Source: Desulfatiglandales bacterium (GTDB taxonomy: Bacteria > Desulfobacterota > DSM-4660 > Desulfatiglandales > Desulfatiglandaceae). From it: DNA of 64,000 bases. The stretch lies in the NCBI GenBank assembly GCA_963662465.1, contig OY759599.1:6144001-6208000 (forward strand). The letters are read 5' to 3'. The notes below the pieces were generated by a model. That model saw only the letters and a program-made list of their open reading frames with translations, did no database searches and had not been told where the DNA came from. The position numbers and the translations under genes were made by a program. Below are positions 4,711-63,937 of this stretch, piece after piece (within the stretch, counting starts at the first letter, position 1; each line of letters begins with the position of its first letter).

Positions 4711-5298
4711 ATGGCCGAGAATAAAAAAGTGAAAGATATTATGGCGCCCATTGAGGATTATGACAGGCTGAATATCGATGCTCAGCTTTGCGATGCCATG
4801 AGCATACTGAAAAGAAATTATGAGCGTCTAAAAACGGGTGATTCCAGCAATTTTCATAAAACCCTGCTGGTGGTGGATGGGGAAAACAAGATCGTTGGAA
4901 AGTTATCCATGTATGATCTGATCCGAGGTCTGGTTCCCGAACCGGCCAAGAAGCCGGAGGTCTCTAAAGCCTATAGTGCCATGCGTTCCGGTCGAGCGCG
5001 CGATGTGGCTGCTCAGGTGGGGGATATTCAGGAACATTTCAGCTGGTTAAAATCCAGCTTTGCGGAACTAATCAAGCAGGAGGCCCATAAAAACGTCAAG
5101 GACATTATGAGTCCCATTCAAAAATCCAGTTTAAAAGCTGAGGACAAGGTGACGGAAGGCATTTATACGCTTTTTAAGGATAATGTTCGGCAGCAGTTTG
5201 TTCAAAGCGAAGGAAAAATTGTAGGCGTCATTAATCTCAATGCCATTTTCCGTGAACTTCTGGAAGTGGCGAGTCCGGAATGCCATATCCACTGGTAA
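4711..5298 (+). CDS. CBS domain pair protein
   Basis: KVKDIM, LLVVD..KIVGKLSMYDL, VKDIMSP, KIVGVINLNAIF; GGAGG RBS. Confidence 0.8.
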   Translation: MAENKKVKDIMAPIEDYDRLNIDAQLCDAMSILKRNYERLKTGDSSNFHKTLLVVDGENKIVGKLSMYDLIRGLVPEPAKKPEVSKAYSAMRSGRARDVAAQVGDIQEHFSWLKSSFAELIKQEAHKNVKDIMSPIQKSSLKAEDKVTEGIYTLFKDNVRQQFVQSEGKIVGVINLNAIFRELLEVASPECHIHW

Positions 5299-5619: not shown

Positions 5620-8052
5620 ATGGACAAAAAAATGAACAGGGCCGGCGTCATTGGGGCAGGGGTAATGGGAGCCACCATCGCCGCTCAACTAGCCAATGTG
5701 GGCATCGAAACCGTTTTGCTCGACATTGTTCCCCCGGAACTCACGGACGACGACAAGAAAAAGGGACTCACACCGGAAAAAAAGGGATTCAGGAACAAAT
5801 TCGGCAACAACGGACTGAAGATCGCTTTAAAGTCTAAACCTGCCTCCTTTTATATTCCGGAAAATGCAAAATTGATCACCATCGGCAACATGGAAGACGA
5901 TCTGGCGCTGTTAAAAGACGTGGATTGGATCATCGAGGTGGTTATTGAACGGCTGGATATCAAGCAAAAGGTTTTTGAAAAGATTGAAACCGTGCTGACG
6001 CCCGGCGCCGTTATTTCCTCCAACACCTCTGGAATAACCGCGAAAGACATGTGCGAAGGGCGTTCCGAAGACTTTAAAAAGCATTTCGCCATCACCCATT
6101 TTTTTAATCCCCCACGCTATATGAAACTTTTGGAGATCGTACCGGGTCCGGATACCCTTCCCGAGGTGGTGGAAAGGCTGGCTGAAGTATGTGAGAAAAA
6201 GCTGGGCAAAGGCATTGTCTATGCCAAAGACACCCCCAATTTCGTGGCCAACCGTGTGGGTACCTTCAGCATGTTTTCCACCATCAATGCCATGATGGAA
6301 CTGGGGCTCAGTGTGGAAGCCGTGGACAAGCTGACGGGCCCCGTGGTGGGGAACCCCAAGAGCGCTTCCTTCAGGACGGCTGACCTGGTGGGTCTGGATA
6401 CATTGCTTCACGTGGCTGACAATGTGTATGAGGGATCTCCCGATGATGAAAAACGGGAAATATTCAAAGCGCCTGAATTCATCTCAAAGATGATTGAAAA
6501 GGGGCTGTTAGGTGAAAAGACCAAACAGGGATTCTATAAAAAAAGCAAGGATGCCGACGGTAAACGGGTGATCCTGTCCTTGGATTACAATACGGTAGAC
6601 CATACGCCACAGGAAAAGGTGAAAATAGCCTCTCTGGCGGCGGCCAAAAATGTTTCCGGAGTCGGCAAAAAAATCAAATCGCTCTATTACGCAAAGGATC
6701 AGGCGGGCGTATTTACCTTTAAAACCTTGAGTGAAACCTTTATCTATGCCGCCAACCGCATTCCGGAAATTGCAGACGATATCGTAAACGTCGACAACGC
6801 CATGAAGTGGGGCTTTGGCCGTAAGCTGGGTCCCTTTGAGTCATGGGATGCCGTAGGTCTGGGAAAATCCGCAGCCAAAATGAAAGAAGCCGGTTATAAA
6901 ATCCCCGCGTGGGTGGAAGAGATGCTCTCTGGCGGCAAAGAAACTTTCTACAAAAAGGAAGCCGGCAAACTCTATTTCTATGATATCGCGTCCAAAGACT
7001 ACCAGGAAGTTCCGGTAAAACCCGGCATTATTCTCCTGCCCACACTCAAAGAGCAGAATAAAACAGTTGCGGAAAATTCGGGCGCCTCCCTCATCGATCT
7101 GGGCGACGGCGTGGCGTGTCTTGAGTTCCACACCAAAATGAACGCCATGGGCGAAGACATTACCAATATGGTCCTGAAATCGGCGGACATTATCAGCAAC
7201 GACTTTGAGGGTCTGGTCATTGCCAACCATGGTACAAACTTTTCCGCCGGCGCCAACCTGCCGCTCATCCTTTTCACGGCCCAGGAAGAAGAATGGGATG
7301 ATCTGGAGTGGATGATAAAGGTGTTCCAGGATTCTTTCATGAAACTGAAATATCTCGATAAACCGGTAGTGGCGGCCCCTGCGGGGATGGCTTTGGGAGG
7401 CGGCTGTGAAATTTGTCTGGCCGCGGATCGGGTGCGGTTTGCCGCGGAGACTTATATGGGCCTTGTGGAAGCGGGCGTTGGCCTGGTTCCGGCGGGCGGG
7501 GGCACCAAGGAGTTGTTTATTCGGAACACGGATCACCTGTTTGAAGTCAAAAGAGGCGGCCTTTACCCCAAACAAATTGAAATGATGCCGTTTATTTCCA
7601 GAGCCTTTGAAACCATCGCCATGGCCAAGGTGGCAACATCGGGTCCGGAAGCCATCAGCCTGGGCTACTTGAGGCCCACGGATAAAATGACCGTTAATCG
7701 CGATTACCAGATTCAGGACGCTAAAAACACGGTGCTGGCCATGAATATTGAAGGTTACACCCCACCGAGACCCAGGGATGATCTGCGGGTCCCCGGTGAC
7801 AACACTTTTGCCATGATTAAACTGGGACTCTGGACCATGCATGAGCAGAACTTTATCACCGACCACGATGTGACCGTATCCACCAAGATCGGATATATTC
7901 TGTGCGGCGGCCAAGTTCAGGAAGACACTATCGTCACGGAACAATACCTCCTTGATTTGGAAAGGGAGGCTTTTCTGAGCCTTCTGGGCGATCCCAACAC
8001 CCAGGCCAGGATACAGCATATGCTGACCACGGGAAAACCGCTCAGGAACTAA
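5620..8052 (+). CDS. fadN: 3-hydroxyacyl-CoA dehydrogenase / enoyl-CoA hydratase (FadN type)
   Basis: GAGVMGATIA Rossmann motif, HFFNPPRYMKLLE, KDTPNFVANRVG, C-terminal crotonase ALGGGCE / GLVEAGVGLVPAGGG, ends GKPLRN. Confidence 0.92.
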   Translation: MDKKMNRAGVIGAGVMGATIAAQLANVGIETVLLDIVPPELTDDDKKKGLTPEKKGFRNKFGNNGLKIALKSKPASFYIPENAKLITIGNMEDDLALLKDVDWIIEVVIERLDIKQKVFEKIETVLTPGAVISSNTSGITAKDMCEGRSEDFKKHFAITHFFNPPRYMKLLEIVPGPDTLPEVVERLAEVCEKKLGKGIVYAKDTPNFVANRVGTFSMFSTINAMMELGLSVEAVDKLTGPVVGNPKSASFRTADLVGLDTLLHVADNVYEGSPDDEKREIFKAPEFISKMIEKGLLGEKTKQGFYKKSKDADGKRVILSLDYNTVDHTPQEKVKIASLAAAKNVSGVGKKIKSLYYAKDQAGVFTFKTLSETFIYAANRIPEIADDIVNVDNAMKWGFGRKLGPFESWDAVGLGKSAAKMKEAGYKIPAWVEEMLSGGKETFYKKEAGKLYFYDIASKDYQEVPVKPGIILLPTLKEQNKTVAENSGASLIDLGDGVACLEFHTKMNAMGEDITNMVLKSADIISNDFEGLVIANHGTNFSAGANLPLILFTAQEEEWDDLEWMIKVFQDSFMKLKYLDKPVVAAPAGMALGGGCEICLAADRVRFAAETYMGLVEAGVGLVPAGGGTKELFIRNTDHLFEVKRGGLYPKQIEMMPFISRAFETIAMAKVATSGPEAISLGYLRPTDKMTVNRDYQIQDAKNTVLAMNIEGYTPPRPRDDLRVPGDNTFAMIKLGLWTMHEQNFITDHDVTVSTKIGYILCGGQVQEDTIVTEQYLLDLEREAFLSLLGDPNTQARIQHMLTTGKPLRN

Positions 8053-50331: not shown

Positions 50332-52107
50332 TTATGTCGCCGCCTGTTCCACGATGGCGTCGGCCAACTGGACTTGGGTGTTTTGGGCGGCGTTCAGCCG
50401 AGCTTTCAGAGTATCGTAGATGGCCATAAGTTTATCGACTTTGGCGACGATTCGATGTTGTTCGTCTATAGGAGGCAGAGGTAAAAGCCAATTATTTAAT
50501 GCAACCATACCTATATTTGCTTGATTTGCTGTGCCAGTAGACTGTGCATAAATCTCGTCAAGTAACCGATCTTCTTTAATAACCATGTTGAGAAAATCAG
50601 GTACAATCAGTAACCCTCTTATTATGCACAATCGCTGGTTCAAATATAATTTTCGCGGCTCAAAATGTTCTGGTCGAACTATCAGCGAATATAGATAGTC
50701 TCTTTTGCCTTTTGTACCAGTCATGGTTATCAAAATATTATTTAGTTCAATTTGGTATTCTGAAGTTTCCTCGGCTAAGTTAGCTGGTATGTATACAGGT
50801 TTCTCATCTAACCGAAGAAAATCAGGCCTGATATTACCCATCCGAATTACTTGGTGGTTACCAGAATCGGAAAACGCCGAACTTTTATAAGCGAAGCCCC
50901 CCTGTAAAATAGATAGCGCTCCAAGACGTACCCACTCCCATCCTTTCGGCAGTTCAAACAGCTTTTCATCCTCACCAATTTCCGGTAAAGGTTTTTGCTT
51001 TTTAAATTTACCTTCTTTGATGAGCTGAGCTTTTTCTTTGGCGATTTTTTCCAGCAGAATACTGGCAGGTTCGTCGTTGGGATCTTGGGGAACGAGTTTC
51101 CCCATGACGGCGAGTTGAAGGATGGTTTGTTTTAGATGGTCGATGGTCTGTTCGGTGGTGAACAGGGTGTCGAAGTGGTTGGCGATGCGTTCCCAGGCTT
51201 CGGCAAATTCTCTTTGATCGGCGGCATTGGCGAGGGTGGCGAGCAGGGTTTCCACCAGGGTTTGGTGGGTGGCGTTGCTGTCGGCTTGCTGCTGTTCCAG
51301 TTGGTCGCAGAGGACCATCAGTTCATCGACTTTGGCAACGATGCGACGTTGTTCTGCGAGAGGCGGAAGCGCGACTACGGTTGCTGTAATTTTTTCACGG
51401 GAAATATTTGGCTGCGCCCCACCAGATCCCATTCCAATGAACCTATTCTTATATGCTTTTAACAAAGTTAAAAGAAAGATGTTCGCAAGTCCACTAAATG
51501 GTGTACAAGCGCACACCGCCTGATTTGTTGTCGCAGGAACCTTTAAAATGGATGTCTTTCCAATTGTTGCACCGTACATTGCAACCAAAACATCGCCAGC
51601 TTTATTATTGCGAAGTGAAGTCTCTTTGAGTGCCAATTCCGTAACATATTCTTCTGAAGTGGAGATATAATCACCTACGAGTTCCCCTGACTTAAACCAA
51701 GGGATCTTACCACCAAAATAGTCATGGCGATTCCGTGTCGGAGTCGCTCCCGCTCCCCACTCGCCAAGATCATTCAATCTCACAAATTGCCATCCATTTG
51801 GGAGTTTGAACGGTTTTTCTTCGTCAGCAATTCCTGAAAGCGCTTTTGGCTTTTTGATTTTCTTTTCTTTGACAAGTTGAATTCTTTCCTTGGCGATTTT
51901 TTCCAGTAGGATGCTGGCGGGTTCATCATCGGGATCTTGTGGCAACAGTTTACCCCGTACGGCCAACTCCAGAATCAGCTCACGCAGCTTCTTGATCCCA
52001 TGTGGGCTTTGGCCATTTGAATTTTTCCCGCGACCTCTGCCGCCGTTGGTCTTTGGCGTCTCGGCGGTCGCCCAGATATCCATATGTTCGGTGATCACGC
52101 TTACCAT
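50332..52107 (-). CDS. hsdS: type I R-M specificity subunit (type IB, EcoAI-like)
   Basis: GIKKLRELILELAVRGKL..QDP.DEPAS and its internal repeat, LPP..EQ.RIVAKVD twice, two AT-rich target recognition domains. Confidence 0.93.
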   Translation of the reverse strand: MVSVITEHMDIWATAETPKTNGGRGRGKNSNGQSPHGIKKLRELILELAVRGKLLPQDPDDEPASILLEKIAKERIQLVKEKKIKKPKALSGIADEEKPFKLPNGWQFVRLNDLGEWGAGATPTRNRHDYFGGKIPWFKSGELVGDYISTSEEYVTELALKETSLRNNKAGDVLVAMYGATIGKTSILKVPATTNQAVCACTPFSGLANIFLLTLLKAYKNRFIGMGSGGAQPNISREKITATVVALPPLAEQRRIVAKVDELMVLCDQLEQQQADSNATHQTLVETLLATLANAADQREFAEAWERIANHFDTLFTTEQTIDHLKQTILQLAVMGKLVPQDPNDEPASILLEKIAKEKAQLIKEGKFKKQKPLPEIGEDEKLFELPKGWEWVRLGALSILQGGFAYKSSAFSDSGNHQVIRMGNIRPDFLRLDEKPVYIPANLAEETSEYQIELNNILITMTGTKGKRDYLYSLIVRPEHFEPRKLYLNQRLCIIRGLLIVPDFLNMVIKEDRLLDEIYAQSTGTANQANIGMVALNNWLLPLPPIDEQHRIVAKVDKLMAIYDTLKARLNAAQNTQVQLADAIVEQAAT

Positions 52108-52109
52108 TT

Positions 52110-53591
52110 CTAAGCTGCTCCCCCGTTATTGAGAGCCTCGGCCAGAATGGTTTTGAGCTGATCTTGCAATTGACTAATTTCCCGTTGTTGCCGGGCATAT
52201 TTTTTCAGTAACTCATCCGGATCATGAGTGATCTGTTCCCCCACATGGGGATTTTTAATATCCAGGTTGTAGTTGCGGGCTTTGATATCATCAATGGAGA
52301 CTTTCCAGGCCTGGTCAGTCTCGACCCTTGCGGCAAAGCCGTCCTCCTCGCTGCCCCACCAATCGATTTCGGCCTGGAACTCCTCAAAGCGCATGGGTTT
52401 GGTCTTGTTGTAGCTTTTGACGCCTTTCGGATAGGGGTGCTCATAATACCAGATATGTTCGGTGGGTTGCCCCTTGGTGAAAAAGAGCAGGTTGGTTTTG
52501 ATGCCGGTGTAGGGGTTGAATACCCCGTTCGGCAATCGCACGATGGTGTGGAGGTTGCATTCCATCAGCAACTGTTCCTTGAGGCGGGTTTTCATGCCTT
52601 CGCCGAAGAAAAAGCCGTCGGGGAGCACCACGGCCGCCCGGCCTCGTTTTTTTAAGAGCTTAATGATTAATGCCACAAACAAATCGGCGGTTTCTCGAGT
52701 GCGCAAGGTGGCCGGAAAATTGTTTTCAATGCCGTCTTCTTCCATGCCCCCGAAGGGCGGATTGGTGACGATAACGTGAACCCGATCTTTTTCGCTGTAA
52801 TCCTTGTACGGGCGGCTTAATGTATTGTCATGCTTGATATTGATGGGGGTGTCGATGCCGTGCAGGATCATATTGGTGATACAGAGCATGTAGGGCAGGG
52901 ATTTTTTGTCGACCCCACGGATGGAGGCTTGCAGCGTTTCTTCATCCTCTGCCGTGTTGACATAGCTCTCTCTCTTATGTTCAATGGCGCAGGTCAAAAA
53001 ACCGCCGGTGCCGCAGGCCGGGTCGAGTACGGTTTCGTCCAACCTCGGAGCAACCCGGTTGACGATGAATTTTGTGACGGCCCGGGGGGTGTAAAACTCT
53101 CCGGCATTTCCGGCGCTTTGCAGGTCTTTGAGGATCTGCTCGTAGATGGCGCCGAAGGTGTGCCGGTCCTTTTGGGTGTTGAAGTCGATCTCGCAGATTT
53201 TATTGATCACCTGGCGCATCAAAGTGCCGGACTTCATGTAGTTGTAGGCGTCTTCAAATACGTCCCGCACCACCAACGCCCGCTTGCCTTCCGGGCCGTG
53301 GGCGCCGAGTTTGTTCTTTAAGGTCGGGAAGAGCTGCAGGTTGACAAAATCGGAGAGTTCGTCGCCGGTCATGCCTTCCGGGTCTTTGGCCCAGGATTGC
53401 CAGCGCAGATGACCCGGCAGCGGGGATTTATAGTCGTCTTCAAGAAGTTCCAATTCGTCTTCCCGGTCATCAAAGATTTTAAGGAAAAACATCCAGACCA
53501 ACTGGCTGATGCGCTGAGCGTCGCCATCGACGCCGACATCTTTACGCATGATATCTTGAATGGATTTGATGATGCCTGAAACATTGCTCAT
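52110..53591 (-). CDS. hsdM: type I R-M m6A methyltransferase
   Basis: [37 protein letters not shown]. Confidence 0.95.
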
Positions 53592-55933
53592 GCAGATAGC
53601 TCCTGTTGAAATAATTCTTGTTCAAGTTCTTGAACGGCGTTTTCGTATTGGGTTTTGCCGCCGAACACCTGATTGATAATCTCCATGGGGGTGCCCATAT
53701 GGCTGAAGGGTTTGAGCTTGAGTACTTTTGCGTTTTCGATGGTGAGAATGCCCTCATCGGCATATTTATCGAGGAGCGCATTTAGCACCGCTCTTGCCTG
53801 TTCGCCGTATTTTGTGAAGTAGTTTCGCTTTTTGACGTTGTTGACCCGCTCTTTTCGAGTGAGCGGGGGCTGATCATAGGCGATATGGCATATCAAGTCA
53901 AAGTCGCCATACTCTTTGCCAATGGTTTCCTTCAAGTTGTCCAGAATGATGCCGTGATCTTCAAGCAATTCGATGATGGCCTGTTTTTTCCCGGCAGTGT
54001 TCCAGGTTCGAAGGAATGCATCCAGGGAAACGAACTCGGATTTGATCTGTTTACGGGTGAAATCTCGGTAAGACTCGGTAATCAGATTGCCGTCCGGGCC
54101 GTAGTATTCAACACGTTCCGCAATAATTTTGACCGGGATGCCGTTAAACACATATTTTTTCGTGCCGTAGCGATTATCGTCGTCATTGTCCTCATCATCC
54201 GGGTCATTCGGATCGGGCGGAACGGGATCATCGTCATCACCCGGTTCATAAATTACCACGGGCTCACCATCGAAATCCGGATCTCTGAAGAGTTCGGTCG
54301 CTTTTTTGAAATCCATGATGGTGAAAAAGTATTTGTTGAATTCTTCCTCTATGCGGGTGCCCCGGCCGATAATCTGCTTAAACATGGTCATGGAGCGGAT
54401 GGTTTTATCCAGCACAATGACCTTACAGGTTTTTGCATCGACACCGGTTGTCAACAGTTCCGATGTGGTGACGATGACGGGGAATTTGCTTTCGGGGTCG
54501 ATAAAATTATCCAGCTCCGCCTTACCTTCGATACTGTCGCCGGTGATGCGCATAACGTATTTGGGGTTGTCGAGGGCGAGCTGCCCCGCGGCATTGATGA
54601 TGGCTGCGCGCATACGTTCCGCATGGTCAATGTTTTCACAGAAGACAATGGTTTTTGCGAATGGATCGGTTGCGTTAAGGAGCTTCATCACCCGGTTTGC
54701 AACGCGCTTTGTTCGTTGGTTCAGGACGAGGATGCGATCCATGTCTTTCTGATTGTAGGTACGCTCTTCGATTTCACGACCAAGATCATCCGTCATGCCG
54801 GGAGGGGGTGTCCAGCCGTAGAGATCCTTGTCCATATCAATGCGCACCACCTTATAGGGTGCGAGAAAACCGTCTGCAATCCCCTGCTTCAGGCTGTAGG
54901 TGTAAACCGGTTCGCCAAAATAGGATATATTTGAAACGTATTTGGTTTCCTTGGGTGTGGCGGTCATACCGATCTGTATGGCGCCGGAAAAATATTCAAG
55001 GATTTCGCGCCAGGCGGAATCATCGGCGGCGCTCCCCCGGTGGCATTCATCGATAACGATCATGTCGAAGAAATCAGGGGAAACATTTTTGAATATCTTA
55101 TCTTCTTCGTCCGGCCCCGTTATGGCCTGATAGAGGCCCAGGTGGATTTCATAGGCCGGATCAATCTTCCGGTTTTTGATCTTGGTCATCACCGACCCGA
55201 ATGGCTTGAAATCATTCACCAGGGTTTGATCGGCCAGAATATTCCGGTCCACCAGAAACAGGGCTCTCTTGACGAGTTTTGCCTTCCAGAGCCGCCAGAT
55301 GATTTGAAATGTCGTATAGGTTTTCCCTGTGCCCGTGGCCATCACAATTAAGATGCGCTTTCGGCCACCCGCGACCGCTTCAACAACCCGATTGATGGCT
55401 TCCACCTGGTAGTAACGGGGCTCTTTCCCTGAACTGTCTGTGTGATAAGGTTGCAAAAGCAGTTCTTCCGATGTGTCTTCGATGCCGCGATAGGTCTTGT
55501 AGCGCTGCCACAGTGTTTGCGGCGGCGGAAATCGGTCAAGGGGGAATTGGGTTTCGATATCCTCATCGGCGGCAGGCGCCTTGTTATGTGAGGAGAAGGT
55601 ATCGCCATTAGAACTGAAGGCACTCGGCACTTCCAGTATTTCCGCGTATCCCAAAGCCTGCTGTATCCCCTGGCTTACGGTGTGCTTATTGTCCTTGGCT
55701 TCTACTACGGCAATGGGGACGCCGGGCTCCTGATAAAGCACGTAGTCCGCGAATTTCTTCTTTTTCTTATTGCGGGATGACATATTACCCCTGACAATGA
55801 TGGGGCCCGGTGTGAGCGTCACCTCGCGGCGGATTTGGTTTCTTGAATCCCACCCGGCATCTTTAATGGCAGGGGTGATGAACAAATCACAGATATCGAT
55901 TTCGCTTAAGTTTTTCTTATTGATTTTGTCCAA
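53588..55933 (-). CDS. hsdR: type I R-M restriction subunit (EcoAI/EcoEI-like)
   Basis: ADYVL..VVEAK nuclease motif, [26 protein letters not shown]; start moved to TTG 55933 with a GAGGTG RBS. Confidence 0.94.
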
Positions 55934-56188
55934 AACGCACCTCTTTTCCAAAGACTCAGGCGTACGCTTACCGATTTGGTTTATGGTTGTGAGCATATGC
56001 CCAACATCGGGAGTTGTCAATAATTGTATGGGGGTGGTAGTGGGAAATTGTCCATTAAATGTGAAGGGTTTAAGCCTTGATTGTGCCCGTTCCCCACCGT
56101 GGTTGTTCAGTAGCGGGGCAGGCACGGGGGGTGGTCGGTAAGGCGGGGTTGGGACTCGCAACATAACGTCCCGCGGTCCCGTTGCGGT

Positions 56189-56485
56189 TTACCTGATGGA
56201 ATGGATTTCATCCATGACGTGGATGTCGGGTTTTCCCGCAAGGAGTCCACCGATTTTGCCAAAGAAGGCCTTGAAATGCGGTGTGGCGGAGTGATAATCA
56301 AGGGCCGCCTTGTCGCTGTAACGTTCCAGAATGACAATCGTGTTGGGATTGGCCTCATCCCGATTCATGGTATAGGAGAGGGTTCCCTCTTCCCCGGCTA
56401 CACCCGTCATGAGTTCTTTGATGAGGTCGATGGCATTATCAACCTTTCCCTCTTGAATGGACAGCTTCGCAATAACTCCGATCAT
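56189..56485 (-). CDS. antibiotic biosynthesis monooxygenase (ABM / putative quinol monooxygenase)
   Basis: EEGTLSY, ILERY..KAALDYHSATPHF; AAAGGAG RBS. Confidence 0.88.
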   Translation of the reverse strand: MIGVIAKLSIQEGKVDNAIDLIKELMTGVAGEEGTLSYTMNRDEANPNTIVILERYSDKAALDYHSATPHFKAFFGKIGGLLAGKPDIHVMDEIHSIR

Positions 56486-56525
56486 TTTACACACTCCTTT
56501 GTTTAGGTTTCTTTGTTCCTCTTAT

Positions 56526-57944
56526 TTATTTTTTCGTCTTTTCAAAGCGTCCCCCGGAGACGGCCGGGTCATTGGGGTAACCGAGGCCCTCAAAATCCAT
56601 GACCCCGTCAGGTCCGTGACAATGGGTACAGGAAAGGGCTTTCTTTTTGGGAACCACCCCGTGGTTGATGGGCCAGTGCATGAGGGTATTGACGAATTTG
56701 ATTTTGCCGCTGTATTTGAGCCCGGCTTCCTTCATGCCGTCCGCCGCGGCCCGGTTCCAGTCAAAATGCGTCCAGAAACCCTCCCACAATTTGGGCACAA
56801 TGAGGTAGCCGTATTCGGCATCGGCCGGCTGTATGCCGGAAAACAGTTTGTAAGGTGTAATCCTGGCGGTTGGATCGCTGATGTCGCCAACCGGCGGATT
56901 CAGCTGCGTTACGCCATTGGCATTGATGGCATCCCCGTTCAAATACCGCCGATGCTTGCCGTTGTTCCAGGCATAGACCGGCTGAACGTTCTGTCGTTTG
57001 ATGAGAACACCCTTCTTTTTGCTGTGGGTGGCGATAACGTCGGGATCCTTCGGCAACAGCTCAACGGCCTTTCCCGCCTTGGACCAGTCCCAGAACATGA
57101 GGGTGGGCTTGTCCCTGGCAAATGTGGGAATATGACAGGTCTGACACGCGACGGTGTCGCAATGGGCATTCAGGGTCTTGAGCAGGGGGTGATCATCATC
57201 ATGGGGCTTTTCGTCGTGACAGTCCGTGCAGGAGACGCGCCCCTCGCTGACGGATGAGGTAACGCTGGCCCCCGAAATTTTATGTTTAAGGGTCACATGG
57301 CATTCCTGGCAGGTAAAATCCTGGCCGCCCATGTGAATATCCTGTAAGGCAGTGGGATGCTTCAGGGTGCTGTCCAGATCCCCGTGCTTGATGGCATCCC
57401 CGCCGCCGCCGAACCAGTGGCATGATCCGCAATTGGCGCGGGTGGGAAGCCCCACCTGTCGCGCGATTTTGACCAGGTCGAGACCTTGTTTTTCATGCCC
57501 GCAGTCCGTGGATGTTTTGGCGTATGTGCCCGTGGTATCGTGACAGACCAGGCAGTCAATGCGCGTGGGATCCGTGAAATCAAATTTTTTGTCCTTCCAT
57601 CCGTAGCCTGCGTGGCAGCTGGTACACCTGCACCAGTTGGAGATGGGGCTCATTCAGAAATTGTTGATCAGTACCCGTTTGCCCAGATCCGTGCGGTGTT
57701 CGTGACCCTGCACATGGGGACTGGGTCCCTGCCACAACCAGTGGGCCGATTGAAGTATTTCATCCGCCTGTTTCCGGTGACATTTGAGGCAGTCTTTCGT
57801 CACCGCCATGCCATTGGCATAGGGGCCCTTTAAACGATTTTGGTGATTGGAAAGACCGGAGTCGGTTTTTTGGGCCATGGAGAGACCCGTATGGATGCAG
57901 AAGGTCAGGATTAAAAGCAATATCGCAAACAAGGTTTTTTTCAT
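56526..57944 (-). CDS. octaheme tetrathionate-reductase-family cytochrome c, predicted selenoprotein (472 aa, U97)
   Basis: Two abutting in-frame track ORFs joined across a single TGA (57656-57654): signal peptide, CLKCH, HWLWQG, LGK.VLINNF-U-MSPISNWCRCTSCHAGYGW; 8 CxxCH in total; SECIS-like hairpin at 57619-57636. Confidence 0.88.
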
Positions 57945-59638
57945 TTTTGATTTTCTCCCAACGATTTGATCGGTTTCAGGTGAACAAAAGACCAGAGATT
58001 GCCGATACCCCCGGGCATCTTTACCCAGCCTTGGAAACGATCGTTTCGGGCTGCCTCTACCCTGGGTCCCGTGTACAGGGGAATGCAGGGAGTTTCCCGT
58101 GCAATAAGTGTCTGCATATCAAAAACCATAGCTTTTCTTCGGTCCGGGTTCCTTTCCCGAGACGCTTTTTCCGCCAGTTCATCAAAGGCGGCGTTTCGAA
58201 AACGGGCATGGTTTTTTCCGCCCGGTAAAGCCTCCGAGCTGTGGAAAAAAGTTTTGAGATAATCCGGATCATCGGAAAGGTTGGTCCATCCTATGATGCA
58301 GGTATCAAAGTCCCCTTTTCTGAGGTGTGCAATGGTCTGGTGCAGGGACTGCATTCGTGTAGATACCGGGATGCCGATTTTTGAGAGGGTCTTCTTGATT
58401 TGCAGGGCCACTTTTAGTCGAAAGGGCCTGTGCCAGCCCCGGGTGGTCAGGATTTCCATGGGCTTCATCTTTTGGCCGTCGGGCAGGATAAGACGTGCTT
58501 TGCCCCAGGAATATCCCGCTTTTTGAAGGATCATTTTGGCCTGGTTGACCCGTTCCTCCGAAGTCAATCCAGCCCCGGGATCCGTCACATGGGGGTTGGA
58601 CCAGAAGGTGTTTTGGGGTGGAATGACACTATATACCGGTGTGCCTTGCCCCTTTAAAATCCGTCTGATAATCTGGCCCCTGTCCACCAAAAGGGCCACG
58701 GCCCGGCGAAACGCGGGATCACTGTAGGGGGCTCGTTCCAGGTTAAAGGTAAGATAGTCATAGCCGGTTCGGTTTGTGCGATAGATCGTTACATGGGGCA
58801 TTTTGGAAATTTGGGATATAAAATCAAGGGGCAGATCCCACCAGATAAAGTCTATTTTGCCTGATACCAGTTCGTTCAAGGATTTTTGAACATCCTGGTT
58901 GAAATCCAGAATGATGGTGGTCAGGTAAGGGCCCACGGAAATGCCTTCTATCTTATGCCCCCGACCAAAAAAATGAGGGTTTTGCTTGAGTACCATAAAG
59001 AACGGTTCGGTGTAGGTTTGCAGAAAAAAAGGACCATTGCTGGAGACGGTTTGCGGTGTAAAGGCGGTAAGGGTTTTAAGGGGATTATGGGTGGTCCGGG
59101 CCGAAAGTACCATTTGCGACCATCTCTTTTTCTGTACAAAGGGCGCGAAAAGTGCCCGCTTAAAAAAGCCGGGACTGGGTCCTTTCAGGGTAAAGCGCAG
59201 GGTCCGTTCATCCAGTGCCTCCATTTTTGCCACATCCTGCCATTTTTCCATATGGCCGGGGACCTGGAATTCCTGAATGGTCTTTACCGTAAACATCAAA
59301 TCCTCCACCGTCACTGGTGAACCGTCATCCCATTTTGCCTCTCGAAGTCGAATGGTGACGCTGTTGGGCAGATCCCCCGGCGTTGGCGGGGATTCCGCCA
59401 GCCAGGGGATCATCCTTCCATCCGCCGGTCCCTTAACATAAAGGGACATGAGGAAAAGCCGAAGAACCTTTTGAGACCAGGCATCGGTCGCGTCGAAATA
59501 GTTCAGGGATTTCGGACGATTCGGCATGGCAATATGAATGCTGTCTTCAACGGCATTTGTCAAACCGGACTGAAATGTCAGGAAAACGATGATGAAACAA
59601 AAAACGGCTCTTCTCAAAATATTCCCTTTGTGCTGCAT
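57941..59638 (-). CDS. ABC transporter substrate-binding protein (family 5), orphan
   Basis: Signal peptide, PWLAES, LREAKWDDGSPVTVEDLMFT, FNLERAPYSDPAFRRAVA; stop overlaps the cytochrome ATG. Confidence 0.88.
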   Translation of the reverse strand: MQHKGNILRRAVFCFIIVFLTFQSGLTNAVEDSIHIAMPNRPKSLNYFDATDAWSQKVLRLFLMSLYVKGPADGRMIPWLAESPPTPGDLPNSVTIRLREAKWDDGSPVTVEDLMFTVKTIQEFQVPGHMEKWQDVAKMEALDERTLRFTLKGPSPGFFKRALFAPFVQKKRWSQMVLSARTTHNPLKTLTAFTPQTVSSNGPFFLQTYTEPFFMVLKQNPHFFGRGHKIEGISVGPYLTTIILDFNQDVQKSLNELVSGKIDFIWWDLPLDFISQISKMPHVTIYRTNRTGYDYLTFNLERAPYSDPAFRRAVALLVDRGQIIRRILKGQGTPVYSVIPPQNTFWSNPHVTDPGAGLTSEERVNQAKMILQKAGYSWGKARLILPDGQKMKPMEILTTRGWHRPFRLKVALQIKKTLSKIGIPVSTRMQSLHQTIAHLRKGDFDTCIIGWTNLSDDPDYLKTFFHSSEALPGGKNHARFRNAAFDELAEKASRERNPDRRKAMVFDMQTLIARETPCIPLYTGPRVEAARNDRFQGWVKMPGGIGNLWSFVHLKPIKSLGENQK

Positions 59639-59642
59639 GACA

Positions 59643-60323
59643 TCACCCCTTGCCCGGCATCCGGTCCGGTTGCATAACGTCTGTGAATATTGAACTTTCC
59701 TTCTTCCATAAAGAAATATCATTTTCGAGCCTTTGGAAGGCACTAAGTTGCCGCAGTGGCGAGAAATCGGAAATCAATTCTGTGATGCGAATGCGGCATT
59801 CCGCCGTGTTAAACCCTTTTAACCGCCTGCCTCTAAGTCCACTGGCTTTACGTAAGATTTCAAAGAGGATATTTTTCGGGTCCGGGATTTGTTCAACTAC
59901 GGATAGATCAGGTATTTTTAATGGATTTTTTCCGTTGGGATTACCAGCCGCAAGCCTGATTGCGGGTTCGTCGAAAAGCAACCACGCTTCCGTCATTCTT
60001 ATCGGCACCACGCAGACAGTCGGTAATTGAAATCCCCGTTTGGCTGCTTCCTGGAGTGCATCGCGGATTTCCCCGTAGCGCGTTTCCGGTTCTTCTCTTT
60101 CGGCATCTCTATGTACAAAAAGCAAATCGGATGGAAAAAGATCTATAGCGGATAAAATACGTTCATGCAGGCTTTTCGGAGGTTGAGGCAAACGACGCAA
60201 ATCAGCCCATTCAGGTTGCACCCGTTTTACGTCGCCTTTTTGCCTCAGGACCCAGGTGAGGATGGGGAGCAATGCGCGATCCGAAGGTCCGTCGGCAATC
60301 AATGTATACCGAAGCTCATCCAT
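59643..60323 (-). CDS. DUF4276/TOPRIM-like protein, partner of the ATPase
   Basis: LIADGPSD, FVHRDAE, VPIRMTEAWLL, E.IPDPK, LSAFQRLE. Confidence 0.7.
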   Translation of the reverse strand: MDELRYTLIADGPSDRALLPILTWVLRQKGDVKRVQPEWADLRRLPQPPKSLHERILSAIDLFPSDLLFVHRDAEREEPETRYGEIRDALQEAAKRGFQLPTVCVVPIRMTEAWLLFDEPAIRLAAGNPNGKNPLKIPDLSVVEQIPDPKNILFEILRKASGLRGRRLKGFNTAECRIRITELISDFSPLRQLSAFQRLENDISLWKKESSIFTDVMQPDRMPGKG

Positions 60324-61815
60324 TATTGAGACCCCACCCCGGAAAATACATCTGGAGGTCATCGCGGTCCACAACCCGATTCGTAGGCTGTTTCGAATTG
60401 GGTTGTGGGGGCGAGGCCGGATTGAGATAAGTCAGAAGCTTGCCTTTCGAGACAATAGCCGGGTTGCCAGGTGCTTTGGCGCGCCATGTATCTGAAAGAT
60501 AGTTGAAGCAGACCTTGTTGAATCTTAGATTGTCACGGATATCTTCCTTCAATTCAGCCACCAGAAGGCAGTTGTCGGGAACTTCGCTAACTACCGCGGG
60601 AGAATGCGTATTGATAATCACCTGGCGCAGAGGATTCGTTTCATCGACCCGTTCATTGGGATCTATTGCAATATCCTGCAGCAATTGCAGCATCGCGGGA
60701 ATTTTTTCCGGGTGTATTCCGTTTTCCGGTTCCTCCAAACAAAGCACCCCTTTGGTGATGGTGTCCAGTTCAAGTACCGTGAGTGCAAGAAAACGAAGTG
60801 TGCCATCGGATAATGAACGAGCAGGATGTTCCGTTCCATCCTTTCCAATAACCTGCAATGTTAAAATTTCGCGTCTGTCGTCCCGATCAACCCACACGCG
60901 GCTCACATCCCCAATCAATGTACTCAGCCGATTGGCGACTTTGGCGAAAATAAAATCCGGGTCTTTTTTTCTTTCTCCGTTTTCAGAAGTCTCGGTTGGT
61001 GTGTGGGCCAGCCGATAAAGGGTTGCGGGGAGATGTTCCCCCCTAAGGGTTAAATGAGAAGGCGCATTAATTTCGTCGGGCTTACGGAGGGCAGAGGGTT
61101 CTAATTGCAAAATGCGCCAAAATTCCATTTCCCGACGGGCGCAGAGAACCGTCGGGCTTTCAGCGGCATTGGCGGCGGATAATACAGTACGGGGAAGATT
61201 TGATGCCGAATGCGGCAGAGGTTTGCCTCGACTCCCGCCACCATCCTGATGGAGTTTAATAATCCGGGAAACCCCGTCCTCTTCCGTGGAGATGAAATAA
61301 GGAACCCTGCGACCCGCTTTAACCACAGTGTCACGCCACTCCTTTGCACTATGCTTGAAAAGCAGGTGTTTTCCAGCCTCACCCTTTTTGATATGGGAAA
61401 GCTCTTCCTTCAGAATCTCCAAAGACCCGTTTGACAGGGTGTTATGTTTGTCGCTTCGATATCCGAGGTCCAGAGCGTATCTCAGCATTGTATTGGTTGC
61501 TTTGCCTGTTTGTCCCAAATCATCCACAGCTTCCCGGGGAACGATCATTTCCACTTCAAAGGACATTCGATCCGTATAATTATTGCCTACACGATGAAAC
61601 AGATTTCGCAGATCGGATGCGCTCCCTCCTTCGGCTCTTATTGACAAAGCGGCTTCGATGAGGGGTCGACTGGCCAAGGCGCTGAGGAAATGGATCGCAT
61701 CAAAAAGATTTGACTTTCCGACGCCATTAACGCCTGCGATACATGTAAATGGTCCAAAACGGACATCTACATCCACCAGGTTCTTAAAACCGTTGACCTT
61801 TAAGCGGATGATCAT
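60316..61815 (-). CDS. AAA_21/ABC-type ATPase (defence-associated type)
   Basis: GFKNL, GVNGVGKSN, LSDGT, LCLEEPENGIHP, INTHSP. Confidence 0.88.
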   Translation of the reverse strand: MIIRLKVNGFKNLVDVDVRFGPFTCIAGVNGVGKSNLFDAIHFLSALASRPLIEAALSIRAEGGSASDLRNLFHRVGNNYTDRMSFEVEMIVPREAVDDLGQTGKATNTMLRYALDLGYRSDKHNTLSNGSLEILKEELSHIKKGEAGKHLLFKHSAKEWRDTVVKAGRRVPYFISTEEDGVSRIIKLHQDGGGSRGKPLPHSASNLPRTVLSAANAAESPTVLCARREMEFWRILQLEPSALRKPDEINAPSHLTLRGEHLPATLYRLAHTPTETSENGERKKDPDFIFAKVANRLSTLIGDVSRVWVDRDDRREILTLQVIGKDGTEHPARSLSDGTLRFLALTVLELDTITKGVLCLEEPENGIHPEKIPAMLQLLQDIAIDPNERVDETNPLRQVIINTHSPAVVSEVPDNCLLVAELKEDIRDNLRFNKVCFNYLSDTWRAKAPGNPAIVSKGKLLTYLNPASPPQPNSKQPTNRVVDRDDLQMYFPGWGLNNG

Positions 61816-61944: not shown

Positions 61945-62196
61945 CTAAATCCCTTTCAGGTATTCCGCCAATTTTTCAGCGGAAAGCGCCGTCTCCAGGG
62001 GAAGTTGCTCCCCGTTCACGAAAACGCTGGTGGCGCTCCTGATCTTGTATTTCATTGCTTCCATGGAGTCATTGGTAAAGATGCTCAGGTTTATGGCATC
62101 CCCCATGGTTTCCTTGGTTTTTTCGGCCACGCCTATGGCCGCCTGGCAACTCCTTCAGCCGGGGTTGCCGCTGTGAAACACGATCACTTCAATCAT
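61945..62196 (-). CDS. small thioredoxin/glutaredoxin-like selenoprotein (83 aa, U14 in UxxC)
   Basis: AAGGAG RBS and ATG 62196 overlapping the end of the CDF gene: MIEVIVFHSGNPG-U-RSCQAAIGVAEK...KYKIRSATSVFVNGE; TGA at 62157-62155; SECIS-like hairpin at 62124-62141. Confidence 0.87.
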
Positions 62197-63448
62197 CTCT
62201 TTTTTCTCCTTTCAATTCATGGTTTGGCAGGGACGATTCATCCATGGCCCCTACCTTTTCAGTGTCGGTTTTCCTCTGAATATCTCGCTGAATCGCCGAC
62301 AGGTTCTTGTCTCCGGTCAACATCACATCCACACCCGCATCGGAAAAAACATAACCGGGGCCCTTTCCTTCAAAGCCTTTTGGGCTATAGACCGTGTCCA
62401 CACCTTTTGCAAGAAGCCACTCGCTGACCTTGATCCCTTTTCCCTTCTCCTCGCCGGCAAAGGGATTGATTTTATAGGCCTCCGAGAGCAGGACCCCGTC
62501 CTTTTCCCGGACCCGGGCTACATAGAAGCAGGGGGCGGTGCCGAAATGTTCGGAGATGTTTTGCCGATCATTTCGGAGCGGAACGGCTACGATGCGGGTT
62601 TCCCGTTTTTGCGGTGCGTAATGAATGAGGATTTGGTCCACATGGGCAACAGCCGTTCTGATATGCTTCTCAATCCGCTGACTCACCACATGGGCTTTTT
62701 CAAGATTTTTGGCCTTAATGATGATATCCGCTTCGATAAACTTGTACTGGCCCGAGTTTCTTCCCCATAGGCCATTGATGGAAACGACCCCGGGATCTTT
62801 TAAGATAATCGTTTTGACCTGATCCAGGGTGTTAAAATCAAGGGAGGCGTCCAGCAGTACCCGAAAGGCGTCGGCAAAAATGCCGGCGCCGGCCTTGAAC
62901 ACCAGCAGGACCACCACGATGGCCGCGATTCGGTCCAAATCCAGATCAAACAGCCCGCCCACGAGCCCCGCGAGAATTACGCAGGAACTCATCATGTCCG
63001 TTCGAATATGTTTGGCGTCCGCAATCAGGCTGGGCGAGCCGATGGCTTTTCCCTGACGCAGCTCATATCGGGAAAATGCAAAGGTAATTCCCGTGGCCGC
63101 CACCAGACCTCCTATGGCATAGGGAAGGTATTGTGTTTTGAGAGTGAATGACTCAAAAAACACCGTTTTGACAATTTCGTACCCCGCCAAAAAGATGAAA
63201 AGGGATGTGAGCAGAGAAACAAAGTTCTCCACTTTATAGAGTCCGTAGGGAAAATTTTTAGATTTTCGTTTGCTGATTTTGATGCCGGCCAGGACCGTGA
63301 TGGAGGAAATCACATCGGTGGCGGAATGAATGGCATCCGCCACCAGTGCAACAGAACCGGAAAGATATGCGAGCCCCCCCTTGAGGACCACCAGCAGAAT
63401 ATTGACGCCAATGGAGTAAAACCCTATTTTTTCCTTTTGGGTCATCAT
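62189..63448 (-). CDS. cation diffusion facilitator with a C-terminal NifB/NifX-like domain
   Basis: ALVADAIHSATD, FPYGLYKVE, ADAKHIRTD, dimerisation domain, then VAVP..ISEHFGTAPCF. Confidence 0.9.
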   Translation of the reverse strand: MMTQKEKIGFYSIGVNILLVVLKGGLAYLSGSVALVADAIHSATDVISSITVLAGIKISKRKSKNFPYGLYKVENFVSLLTSLFIFLAGYEIVKTVFFESFTLKTQYLPYAIGGLVAATGITFAFSRYELRQGKAIGSPSLIADAKHIRTDMMSSCVILAGLVGGLFDLDLDRIAAIVVVLLVFKAGAGIFADAFRVLLDASLDFNTLDQVKTIILKDPGVVSINGLWGRNSGQYKFIEADIIIKAKNLEKAHVVSQRIEKHIRTAVAHVDQILIHYAPQKRETRIVAVPLRNDRQNISEHFGTAPCFYVARVREKDGVLLSEAYKINPFAGEEKGKGIKVSEWLLAKGVDTVYSPKGFEGKGPGYVFSDAGVDVMLTGDKNLSAIQRDIQRKTDTEKVGAMDESSLPNHELKGEKRDD

Positions 63449-63550
63449 GAATCGTCTGATCCTTTCCGGGGTGAACTCAGGCTTTCCAGCAGGGCGAAGG
63501 CGCCCAAATTCGGGTACAACTTTTTGTAACAGCCAAAAAAACTTGACGGA

Positions 63551-63937
63551 TTATAAACTGATGGTGGTGCTTTTGCACGCCAATTCCCACATTTTGGTGG
63601 CCGGCGCCATCTGAAAACCCTCCATCAGGTCTTCTTCCTTGATCTGTCGGGTTTTGGCGCAGGGGGCGCATACGTAAATGGGTACCTCGAATTCCTGCAG
63701 ATACATCAGCAGATCATCGGCAACATCGCCGGTGGGCGCCCGAAGGTTTTCTGCGATGCCTTTCCTGGCGATATAGACCGCTTCATCAAGAAGAAAAACC
63801 GCTACGTTTTTTCCCATGCCGTGGGCCACCTGGGCCAGGTGAATGGCCCTGACGGAACGGTTGGGGTTATTGGTGCCGCAGCTGACGGTAATCAACACAT
63901 TGTTTTCTCTGGAATCCATTTCGGTTTTTTGGGTCAT
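63551..63937 (-). CDS. DsrE family protein (CxxC form)
   Basis: VFLLDEAVY, APTGD, PIYVCAPCAKTR; AAGGAG RBS. Confidence 0.88.
   Translation of the reverse strand: MTQKTEMDSRENNVLITVSCGTNNPNRSVRAIHLAQVAHGMGKNVAVFLLDEAVYIARKGIAENLRAPTGDVADDLLMYLQEFEVPIYVCAPCAKTRQIKEEDLMEGFQMAPATKMWELACKSTTISL

Follow-up and report, generated by a model that had tools for sequence, protein, structure and literature searches.

An apparently interrupted gene that almost certainly encodes an octaheme OTR-family selenoenzyme, and a covarying cysteine pair with one member encoded in its SECIS hairpin

The locus and its read-through product

The window analysed here is a stretch of 64,000 nucleotides from a Desulfatiglandales bacterium (contig OY759599.1, positions 6,144,001 to 6,208,000), and coordinates below are positions within it unless a genome position is given. 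Standard ORF calling yields two reading frames on the minus strand, one of 96 aa (57654–57944) and one of 375 aa (56526–57653), which share a frame and are separated by a single TGA at 57654–57656. Reading this TGA as selenocysteine (Sec) gives one protein of 472 aa with a single U at residue 97 and no further stops or frameshifts. Exactly eight CxxCH motifs, at residues 52, 107, 131, 172, 212, 239, 267, and 439, are obtained only by this read-through (one plus seven). The gene runs from 57944 to 56526; the plus-strand reading of the interval 56526..57944 is interrupted by stops and contains no gene. At the TGA, short-read contigs assembled from a single sample sequenced in two runs show identical letters, although that sample is possibly the source of the window itself, in which case the reads would not be independent. 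The features to which the text refers are as follows, with residue equivalences to the octaheme tetrathionate reductase (OTR) of Shewanella taken from the alignment.

56526..57944, minus strand: full coding sequence of the Sec-OTR, 472 aa with U97, assigned from the translation, the TIGR04315 score, and the comparison with 1SP3
57873..57944, minus strand: signal-peptide-like N-terminus, approximately residues 1–24 (MKK, hydrophobic helix, SMA end), from the look of the sequence; helix 2–22 in the model
57678..57680, minus strand: Lys89, equivalent to OTR Lys56, the heme 2 ligand, from the 1SP3 alignment
57654..57656, minus strand: in-frame TGA read as Sec97, equivalent to OTR Cys64, from the translation, the 1SP3 alignment, and relatives
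57619..57636, minus strand: SECIS hairpin CTGGTGC-AGGT-GTACCAG with a 7-bp stem, an AGGU loop, and 24 nt from TGA to loop, from the bSECIS criteria and conservation
57630..57632, minus strand: Cys105, equivalent to OTR Pro72, with its codon in the SECIS 5' arm; TGC in 86/86 loci
57612..57626, minus strand: heme-2 motif C107-T-S-C110-H111, equivalent to OTR C74-H78, overlapping the SECIS 3' arm, from the alignment
57501..57503, minus strand: Cys148, equivalent to OTR Ala115, obligate partner of Cys105, from covariation
57387..57389, minus strand: Lys186, equivalent to OTR Lys153, invariant and coupled to position 97, from the alignment and the coupling analysis
57159..57161, minus strand: Cys262, a non-heme cysteine beside the conserved His261, Sec-associated and with no covarying partner
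57941..59635, minus strand: family-5 solute-binding protein gene, upstream, its stop overlapping the OTR start (ATGA); conserved there only in close relatives
56189..56494, minus strand: ABM-domain gene downstream of OTR, on the same strand, with no match in the loci of 18 relatives

A GGAG lies 10 nt 5' of the first ATG, which shares bases with the stop codon of the gene upstream, and no comparable GGAG-like site is found upstream of the second ATG, from which the 375-aa ORF begins. A scan for promoters and terminators returned matches at chance level only. The first-pass annotation, which stated no strand, had described two in-frame ORFs one TGA apart, eight heme motifs in the joined product, and a second ORF having neither a signal peptide nor a ribosome-binding site, and the present analysis agrees on each of these counts. 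Its expectation that standard annotation would split the gene is borne out by databases that hold many products of ∼375 aa starting past the TGA.

Family membership and fold

The whole read-through protein scores 520.1 bits against the TIGR04315 HMM, for which the curated cut-off is 375, and among solved structures the sole relative recognised by sequence is that of Shewanella OTR (PDB 1SP3). An AlphaFold2 model built from a 78-sequence alignment (pLDDT 90.1) matches 1SP3 with a Z of 44.4 and an rmsd of 1.8 Å over 416 aligned residues at 48% identity, and the next structural match among the 80 Foldseek-ranked chains that were re-examined has a Z of 3.3. MccA is not one of the four chains with Z ≥ 2, in a comparison that covered these 80 chains and is not an exclusion test. 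The window protein shares with the Shewanella oneidensis OTR SO4144 (1SP3, TIGR04315) the eight CxxCH motifs, their order, the fold, and the Lys-ligated heme 2, but differs in having Sec for Cys64, Cys105 for Pro72, Cys148 for Ala115, and an additional Cys262. In OTR, heme II is carried on C74-H78 with Lys56, as stated in PMC3769277; ligation in the window protein is assigned by alignment, and Lys occupies the heme-2 ligand column in 218 of 218 classified rows. Asp183 and Lys186 correspond by alignment to OTR Asp150 and Lys153, and 369 of the 397 aligned rows have either Cys or TGA in the Cys64 column. A figure legend in the MmcA preprint (10.1101/2023.04.20.537704) names a conserved Cys of the OTR catalytic site, which we infer to be Cys64. 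The score, the fold, and the alignment of U97 with Cys64 and of K89 with Lys56 uphold the membership in the OTR family that had been proposed from the sequence at first sight. No second OTR was found in the genome, which is complete in a single contig.

A second family deserves comparison. MccSep/ExtKL of Geobacter sulfurreducens, which PMC13510729 presents as the sole characterised multiheme selenoenzyme, is a tetrameric polysulfide reductase with five hemes, a His/Cys-ligated catalytic heme, and Sec325 on a C-terminal Ig-like domain. MccSep/ExtKL resembles the window protein in being a periplasmic multiheme c-type selenoprotein whose Sec lies at catalytic heme 2 and which was wrongly annotated as two genes, whereas the window protein has eight hemes, a Lys ligand, and Sec near the N-terminus. 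Eight motifs with Sec at 97, against five hemes with Sec in an Ig-like domain at the C-terminus, rule out MccSep/ExtKL as the family of the window protein, and NF040886 (MccSep/ExtKL) is not among its NCBIfam matches. By analogy, MccSep/ExtKL may serve as the best functional guide.

The in-frame TGA as a selenocysteine codon

Forty-six loci were examined and the motif was readable in 44, where the column of codon 97 is TGA in 19 and TGC or TGT in 25; TGA occurs in all 12 of the closest relatives (62–92% identity). When the collection was scanned for TGA-type genes, no fewer than 119 further loci, spread over many families, were found, L197 (Methanobrevibacter) having been left out as a chance pattern match. 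A phylum search flagged 31 of 69 places as having one TGA, which is an upper bound for Sec; counting these flags as Sec was rejected, L210 and L216 having TGC at the column.

The genome encodes tRNA-Sec (selC) together with selA, selB, and selD, each above cut-off. Of 24 other genomes picked because they have the TGA form, 22 yielded selA and 19 selB, and neither gene was found in two of these 24 MAGs, whose completeness is not given. Because selA is also present in 7 of 8 genomes picked for Cys-type genes, this presence test separates little. The other UGA genes of the genome (three FdhA, SelD, and three MvhD) carry hairpins similar to that of the OTR gene; the sites at G000:C1 822973, 2264941, 5080677, 7961293, 6000418, 7656917, 1930663, and 5156041 are presumably selenoprotein UGA codons, which we take to belong to a UxxC peroxiredoxin-like protein, three MvhD, three FdhA, and SelD. 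The first-pass annotation had placed Sec97 at the conserved catalytic Cys of OTR and had suggested counting TGA against TGC/TGT in relatives and looking for the Sec genes; the alternation of TGA and Cys at one column, the uniform TGA of the closest relatives, and the presence of all four sel genes support its placement.

The TGA might instead be a true stop, in a pseudogene, through a sequencing error, or in a split gene that re-initiates at the next ATG. This would accord with the ATG that directly adjoins the TGA in the window gene, with the ∼375-aa database products that begin past it, and with the ordinary folding energy of the hairpin described below. However, just 10 of 47 sites of the same hairpin type have ATG directly behind the TGA, so re-initiation is not conserved, and the same TGA recurs in the 119 or more other loci of many families. 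Moreover, the second ORF is devoid of a signal peptide, the frame is otherwise free of stops and frameshifts, and a conserved SECIS is accompanied by Sec machinery in the genome. A true stop is thus scarcely credible, while insertion of Sec at codon 97 appears very nearly assured from sequence comparison. The gene seemingly broken by a stop is almost certainly that of an intact eight-heme enzyme with Sec beside the catalytic heme.

Two types of SECIS hairpin

The bSECIS rules set out in section 5 of PMC13188914 call for a loop of 3–9 nt, a stem of 4–16 bp, a G in the first two loop positions, a spacing of 16–37 nt, and an MFE ≤ −7.5. The window hairpin lies within these bounds, with a loop of 4, a stem of 7, a spacing of 24, and −10.7 kcal/mol for 30 nt, and the earlier location of its loop 24 nt past the TGA, with the reading as a SECIS, stands, the stem being conserved. 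The 24-nt spacing falls in the range of the FdhA, SelD, and MvhD hairpins of the genome, whose loops lie at ∼17–27 nt. Folding energy as proof of a SECIS was rejected as non-significant, since the value is ordinary (z −1.13, a level equalled by 26 of 200 shuffled sequences; in longer windows z ranges from +1.3 to −0.4). A comparable hairpin follows 0.26% of the 315,791 six-frame TGA triplets of the genome. It is conservation, and not folding energy, that sets the hairpin beyond chance.

Comparison of 134 distinct TGA sites, a sample biased by the TGA-form search pattern, separates 47 of NWC type (including the window gene), 86 of NEAR type, and one that is neither. In the NWC type, stem pairs 1–6 are formed in 47 of 47 sites and pair 7 in 45, with a compensatory C-G to U-A pair in 7 of the 47 and frozen codons. 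The NEAR hairpin, in the codons AAC GAG GCT CGT TGC, lies five nucleotides closer than the NWC hairpin; its 7 pairs are formed in 85–86 of 86 sites, with one compensatory A-U to G-C change. At Cys-type sites pairs 2 and 3 of the stem are formed in only 4/50 and 1/50. Position 105 (OTR Pro72) is Pro in 34 of 50 Cys-type genes, and the hairpin therefore swaps Pro72 for Ala in the NEAR type or for Cys in the NWC type. Tyr at 105 would also close the stem and is seen in 0/134 TGA sites.

Variants occur as well. The lone TGA-type OTR among Cys-type relatives, L051 (NWSR), has neither standard hairpin; it might represent a third type of SECIS or else be a defective gene. The NECS/NGCS variants L285, L292, L293, L299, and L286 have a shortened or bulged stem and retain both Cys105 and Cys148.

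Branching of the Sec forms

Trees were built with the Sec-SECIS segment masked, from 52 and 32 hand-picked rows of 219. Both the 52-row and the 32-row tree require at least seven Sec/Cys changes, in unrooted trees from quick searches. NWC-type genes divide between two branches, A (to which the window gene belongs) and D, and their placement in one clade is rejected (p-AU 0.00018; 0.00072 under a mixture model). The NEAR type also falls in two branches and is rejected as a single clade (p 1.9e-11). A first tree had been inspected before these tests. Repeated gain of Sec, ancestral Sec with losses, and exchange of short segments cannot be told apart from these trees. One 9-kb locus, L005, holds two Sec-type OTR genes (NWCR and NWCS). 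The same motif segments occur in L114 and L295, MAGs titled as different phyla, which suggests a binning error in one of them.

A cysteine pair at positions 105 and 148

A complete scan for Cys at +8 from position 97 found 86 TGA loci and one Cys locus, L227. In an all-column association Cys148 accompanies Cys105 in 37/37 cases vs 0/182 without Cys105; it is present in 86 of 86 loci having TGA and Cys105, 51 of them new to the analysis, and in none of 134 sites without Cys105 (83 TGA and 51 Cys). When distant representatives were added, 418 rows, some of them locus and protein duplicates, comprised 109 with both cysteines, 307 with neither, 2 with Cys148 only, and 0 with Cys105 only. Counted as 362 distinct segments, both are present in 82 Sec and 1 Cys segments, neither in 56 Sec and 222 Cys segments, and Cys148 only in 1 Cys segment. 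The rows are related by descent, and the pair rests on two branches rather than on 86 independent events.

Mean-field coupling over residues 45–224 (424 rows, 303 effective) ranks 105–148 first of 15,225 pairs, 97–105 at 6,362, and 97–148 at 4,731, with 97–186 in the top ten. A Sec97-Cys105 redox pair was accordingly rejected, as was Cys105 as a lone RNA by-product, Cys148 being present in every Cys105 case. After removal of the Cys-pair rows 105–148 falls to rank 1,416, and pairs 109–145, 106–148, 106–145, and 106–146 rank 16, 110, 114, and 126. Since these neighbours stay high-ranked without the Cys-pair rows, the segments around 105–109 and 145–148 are probably in contact irrespective of the Cys pair.

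The codon of Cys105 is invariably TGC while that of Cys110 is split 24/23, which argues for a joint RNA and protein constraint on the former. Neither Cys105 nor Cys148 is present in 56 of 138 distinct Sec segments, so Sec catalysis does not depend on the pair. The first-pass annotation had offered two explanations for the additional Cys in the hairpin. A SECIS-driven substitution is supported by the fixed codon and by most Sec-OTRs being without Cys105, whereas a resolving partner of Sec is disfavoured by covariation with 148 and not with 97. We consider it likely from these patterns that Cys105 and Cys148 form a structural disulfide that caps the SECIS-imposed Cys, and, on balance, Sec-OTR would be a selenoprotein in which this pair is structural and not catalytic. 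Against a structural pair, its near-strict tie to Sec (82 Sec vs 1 Cys segments) fits a catalytic relay equally well, and the Cys-type L227 retained both cysteines after its SECIS loop changed. L227 (1501–1700), nested among Sec genes, has Cys97, a loop changed to CGCU, Cys105 and Cys148, and a heme-3 motif without the first Cys; it looks like a reversion, possibly a decaying one, and its genome retains selA and selB.

Such a relay, in which Cys105 and Cys148 are a redox-active dithiol that re-reduces the Sec97 selenosulfide in the manner of thioredoxin reductase, draws support from the near confinement of the pair to Sec forms (86 vs 1 loci), its position adjoining the catalytic heme motif, and its recurrence with Sec in two branches. 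It is nevertheless improbable, given that the NEAR-type Sec-OTRs (86 of 134 TGA sites) have neither cysteine, that position 97 is uncoupled from both 105 and 148 at the ranks given above, that residue 105 is eight residues past 97 within helix 100–107 of the model, and that RNA pairing explains the fixed TGC codon. In MccA, copper is held by two cysteines. In the window protein the two cysteines, strictly paired and adjacent to the motif of the catalytic heme, might likewise ligate Cu(I) as a soft metal close to heme 2, giving a heme-Cu-Se site with a copper comparable to that of MccA/SirA. MccA/SirA is an octaheme heme-copper sulfite reductase of another family, and PMC12949373 states that its hemes superimpose on those of OTR, that copper sets MccA apart, and that OTR may reduce sulfite. 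However, changes of Pro→Cys and Ala→Cys where residues pack together usually signify a disulfide, and a further Cys pair that covaries in the family, at 201/278, is far from this site, so we judge a copper site very unlikely. A broader scenario, in which Sec was gained or exchanged several times, the SECIS on each occasion displaced Pro72 by Ala or Cys in the heme-2 motif region, the RNA-imposed Cys of the NWC route recruited Cys148 twice, and the pair is a functional redox or metal centre for S-S reduction at a heme-Lys/Sec/Cys-Cys site, is doubtful.

The pair at OTR columns 201/278, which are not Cys in the window protein, comprises 51 rows with both cysteines, 3 with one, and 395 with neither, and is common in NEAR-type Sec-OTRs and in some Cys-type relatives. 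Cys262 occurs in 38 of 138 Sec loci vs 0 of 52 Cys loci, and a few Cys97 proteins in databases have it.

Proposed mechanism and substrate

The structural reading of the pair leads to the following proposal. SelB acting on the in-frame hairpin would insert Sec at codon 97, a step strongly supported by the evidence above, and the precursor would be exported and loaded with eight hemes, as suggested by the signal peptide, the motifs, and two cytochrome c assembly genes in the genome. Electrons would travel through seven bis-His hemes to the Lys89-ligated heme 2, in whose pocket the Sec97 selenolate, beside Lys186, would attack an S-S bond (polysulfide, polythionate, or thiosulfate sulfane); by analogy with MccSep, the resulting selenosulfide would then be reduced from heme 2. 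The SECIS would have had to arise within codons that also spell the heme-2 motif, its stem being completed here by Pro→Cys at 105. A second-site Ala→Cys at 148 would pair with Cys105, the disulfide stapling the heme-2 helix to the 143–150 loop. Were Cys148 missing, the SECIS-imposed Cys105 would be free two residues before the heme-attachment motif.

The substrate class is less certain than the residue. The physiological role of OTR has never been established, according to PMC12949373, where its best in vitro activities are reduction of nitrite and hydroxylamine, deletion data speak against tetrathionate respiration, and mutants suggested a role with sulfite. These activities and the mutant-based suggestion, together with the open Lys-ligated heme site that is retained, favour a main role in nitrite or hydroxylamine detoxification, or in sulfite reduction, with Sec only tuning the pocket; such a role, compatible with a structural disulfide, is possible though it falls short of an even chance. 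Against it, MccSep reduces polysulfide and not nitrite (PMC13510729). In addition, the Sec forms cluster, by record titles, in sulfate reducers and sulfur disproportionators. Sec normally stands in for a redox-active, nucleophilic Cys. Its natural substitution here would mark Cys64 as such a nucleophile and points to sulfur-sulfur chemistry. Since dsrA is present, the host is taken to be sulfur-respiring. By analogy, we give roughly even odds that S-S compounds, reached through selenolate attack at heme 2, are the substrate class. Cultured carriers, by record title Desulfobulbus propionicus-like, Thermosulfurimonas dismutans, Thermodesulfatator, Desulfosarcina, and Pseudodesulfovibrio, make this chemistry testable.

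Sec-OTR is not a new selenoprotein family, its kind being already catalogued in Table 1 of PMC13188914, which lists a TIGR04315 protein with one Sec, WP_331457571.1, as annotated in GenBank and with neither motif nor experiment. That protein and the window protein are alike in family and in having one Sec; neither the place of the Sec nor a subtype is stated in the table. Searches of open-licence PMC and bioRxiv texts turned up no account of the two kinds of SECIS or of the Cys105-Cys148 pair, although subscription papers or supplements of selenoproteome surveys could hold one. The RNA-imposed Cys with an obligate partner in this subtype is thus apparently undescribed. The subtype offers a clean case in which mRNA structure dictates a residue adjoining an active site, for which a Cys 43 residues off apparently compensates. 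Because annotation presents many Sec-OTR genes as truncated proteins with seven hemes and no signal peptide, sulfur-cycling potential is mis-scored in genomes.

Gene neighbourhood

The solute-binding protein gene is translationally coupled upstream of OTR in the window, as it is in 8 of the 12 loci most closely related to it. Within 2.5-kb flanks it lies near OTR in 10 of 34 clade-A loci and in 0 of 52 clade-D loci. Its three paralogues in the genome (37–38% identity) are at G000:C1 5132297, 1810627, and 5844033, and the two that were inspected stand in unrelated contexts with no ABC permease within ∼1.5 kb. A functional link between OTR and the solute-binding protein was rejected on these clade counts and paralogue contexts. 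No quinol-oxidising partner is encoded beside the window OTR gene. In clade D a particular membrane gene follows OTR in 45 of 52 cases, which we take from its sequence to be cytochrome b-like.

Between the genes for the CDF transporter and the solute-binding protein lies an AAA_21/AAA_15 ATPase and DUF4276 pair (59643–61815, minus strand), which presumably resembles defence or toxin-antitoxin pairs. The pair looks inserted because in L002, L004, and L006 nothing separates the CDF gene from the solute-binding protein gene that follows it. Further upstream (62189–63937, minus strand) are a CDF transporter that carries a fused FeMo-cofactor-binding domain and, in addition, a DsrE-like gene. Downstream of OTR, three genes at 50332–56164 on the minus strand resemble, by the look of their sequences, the HsdR, HsdM, and HsdS of type I restriction-modification; at their place L002 has only a short HsdR-like remnant.
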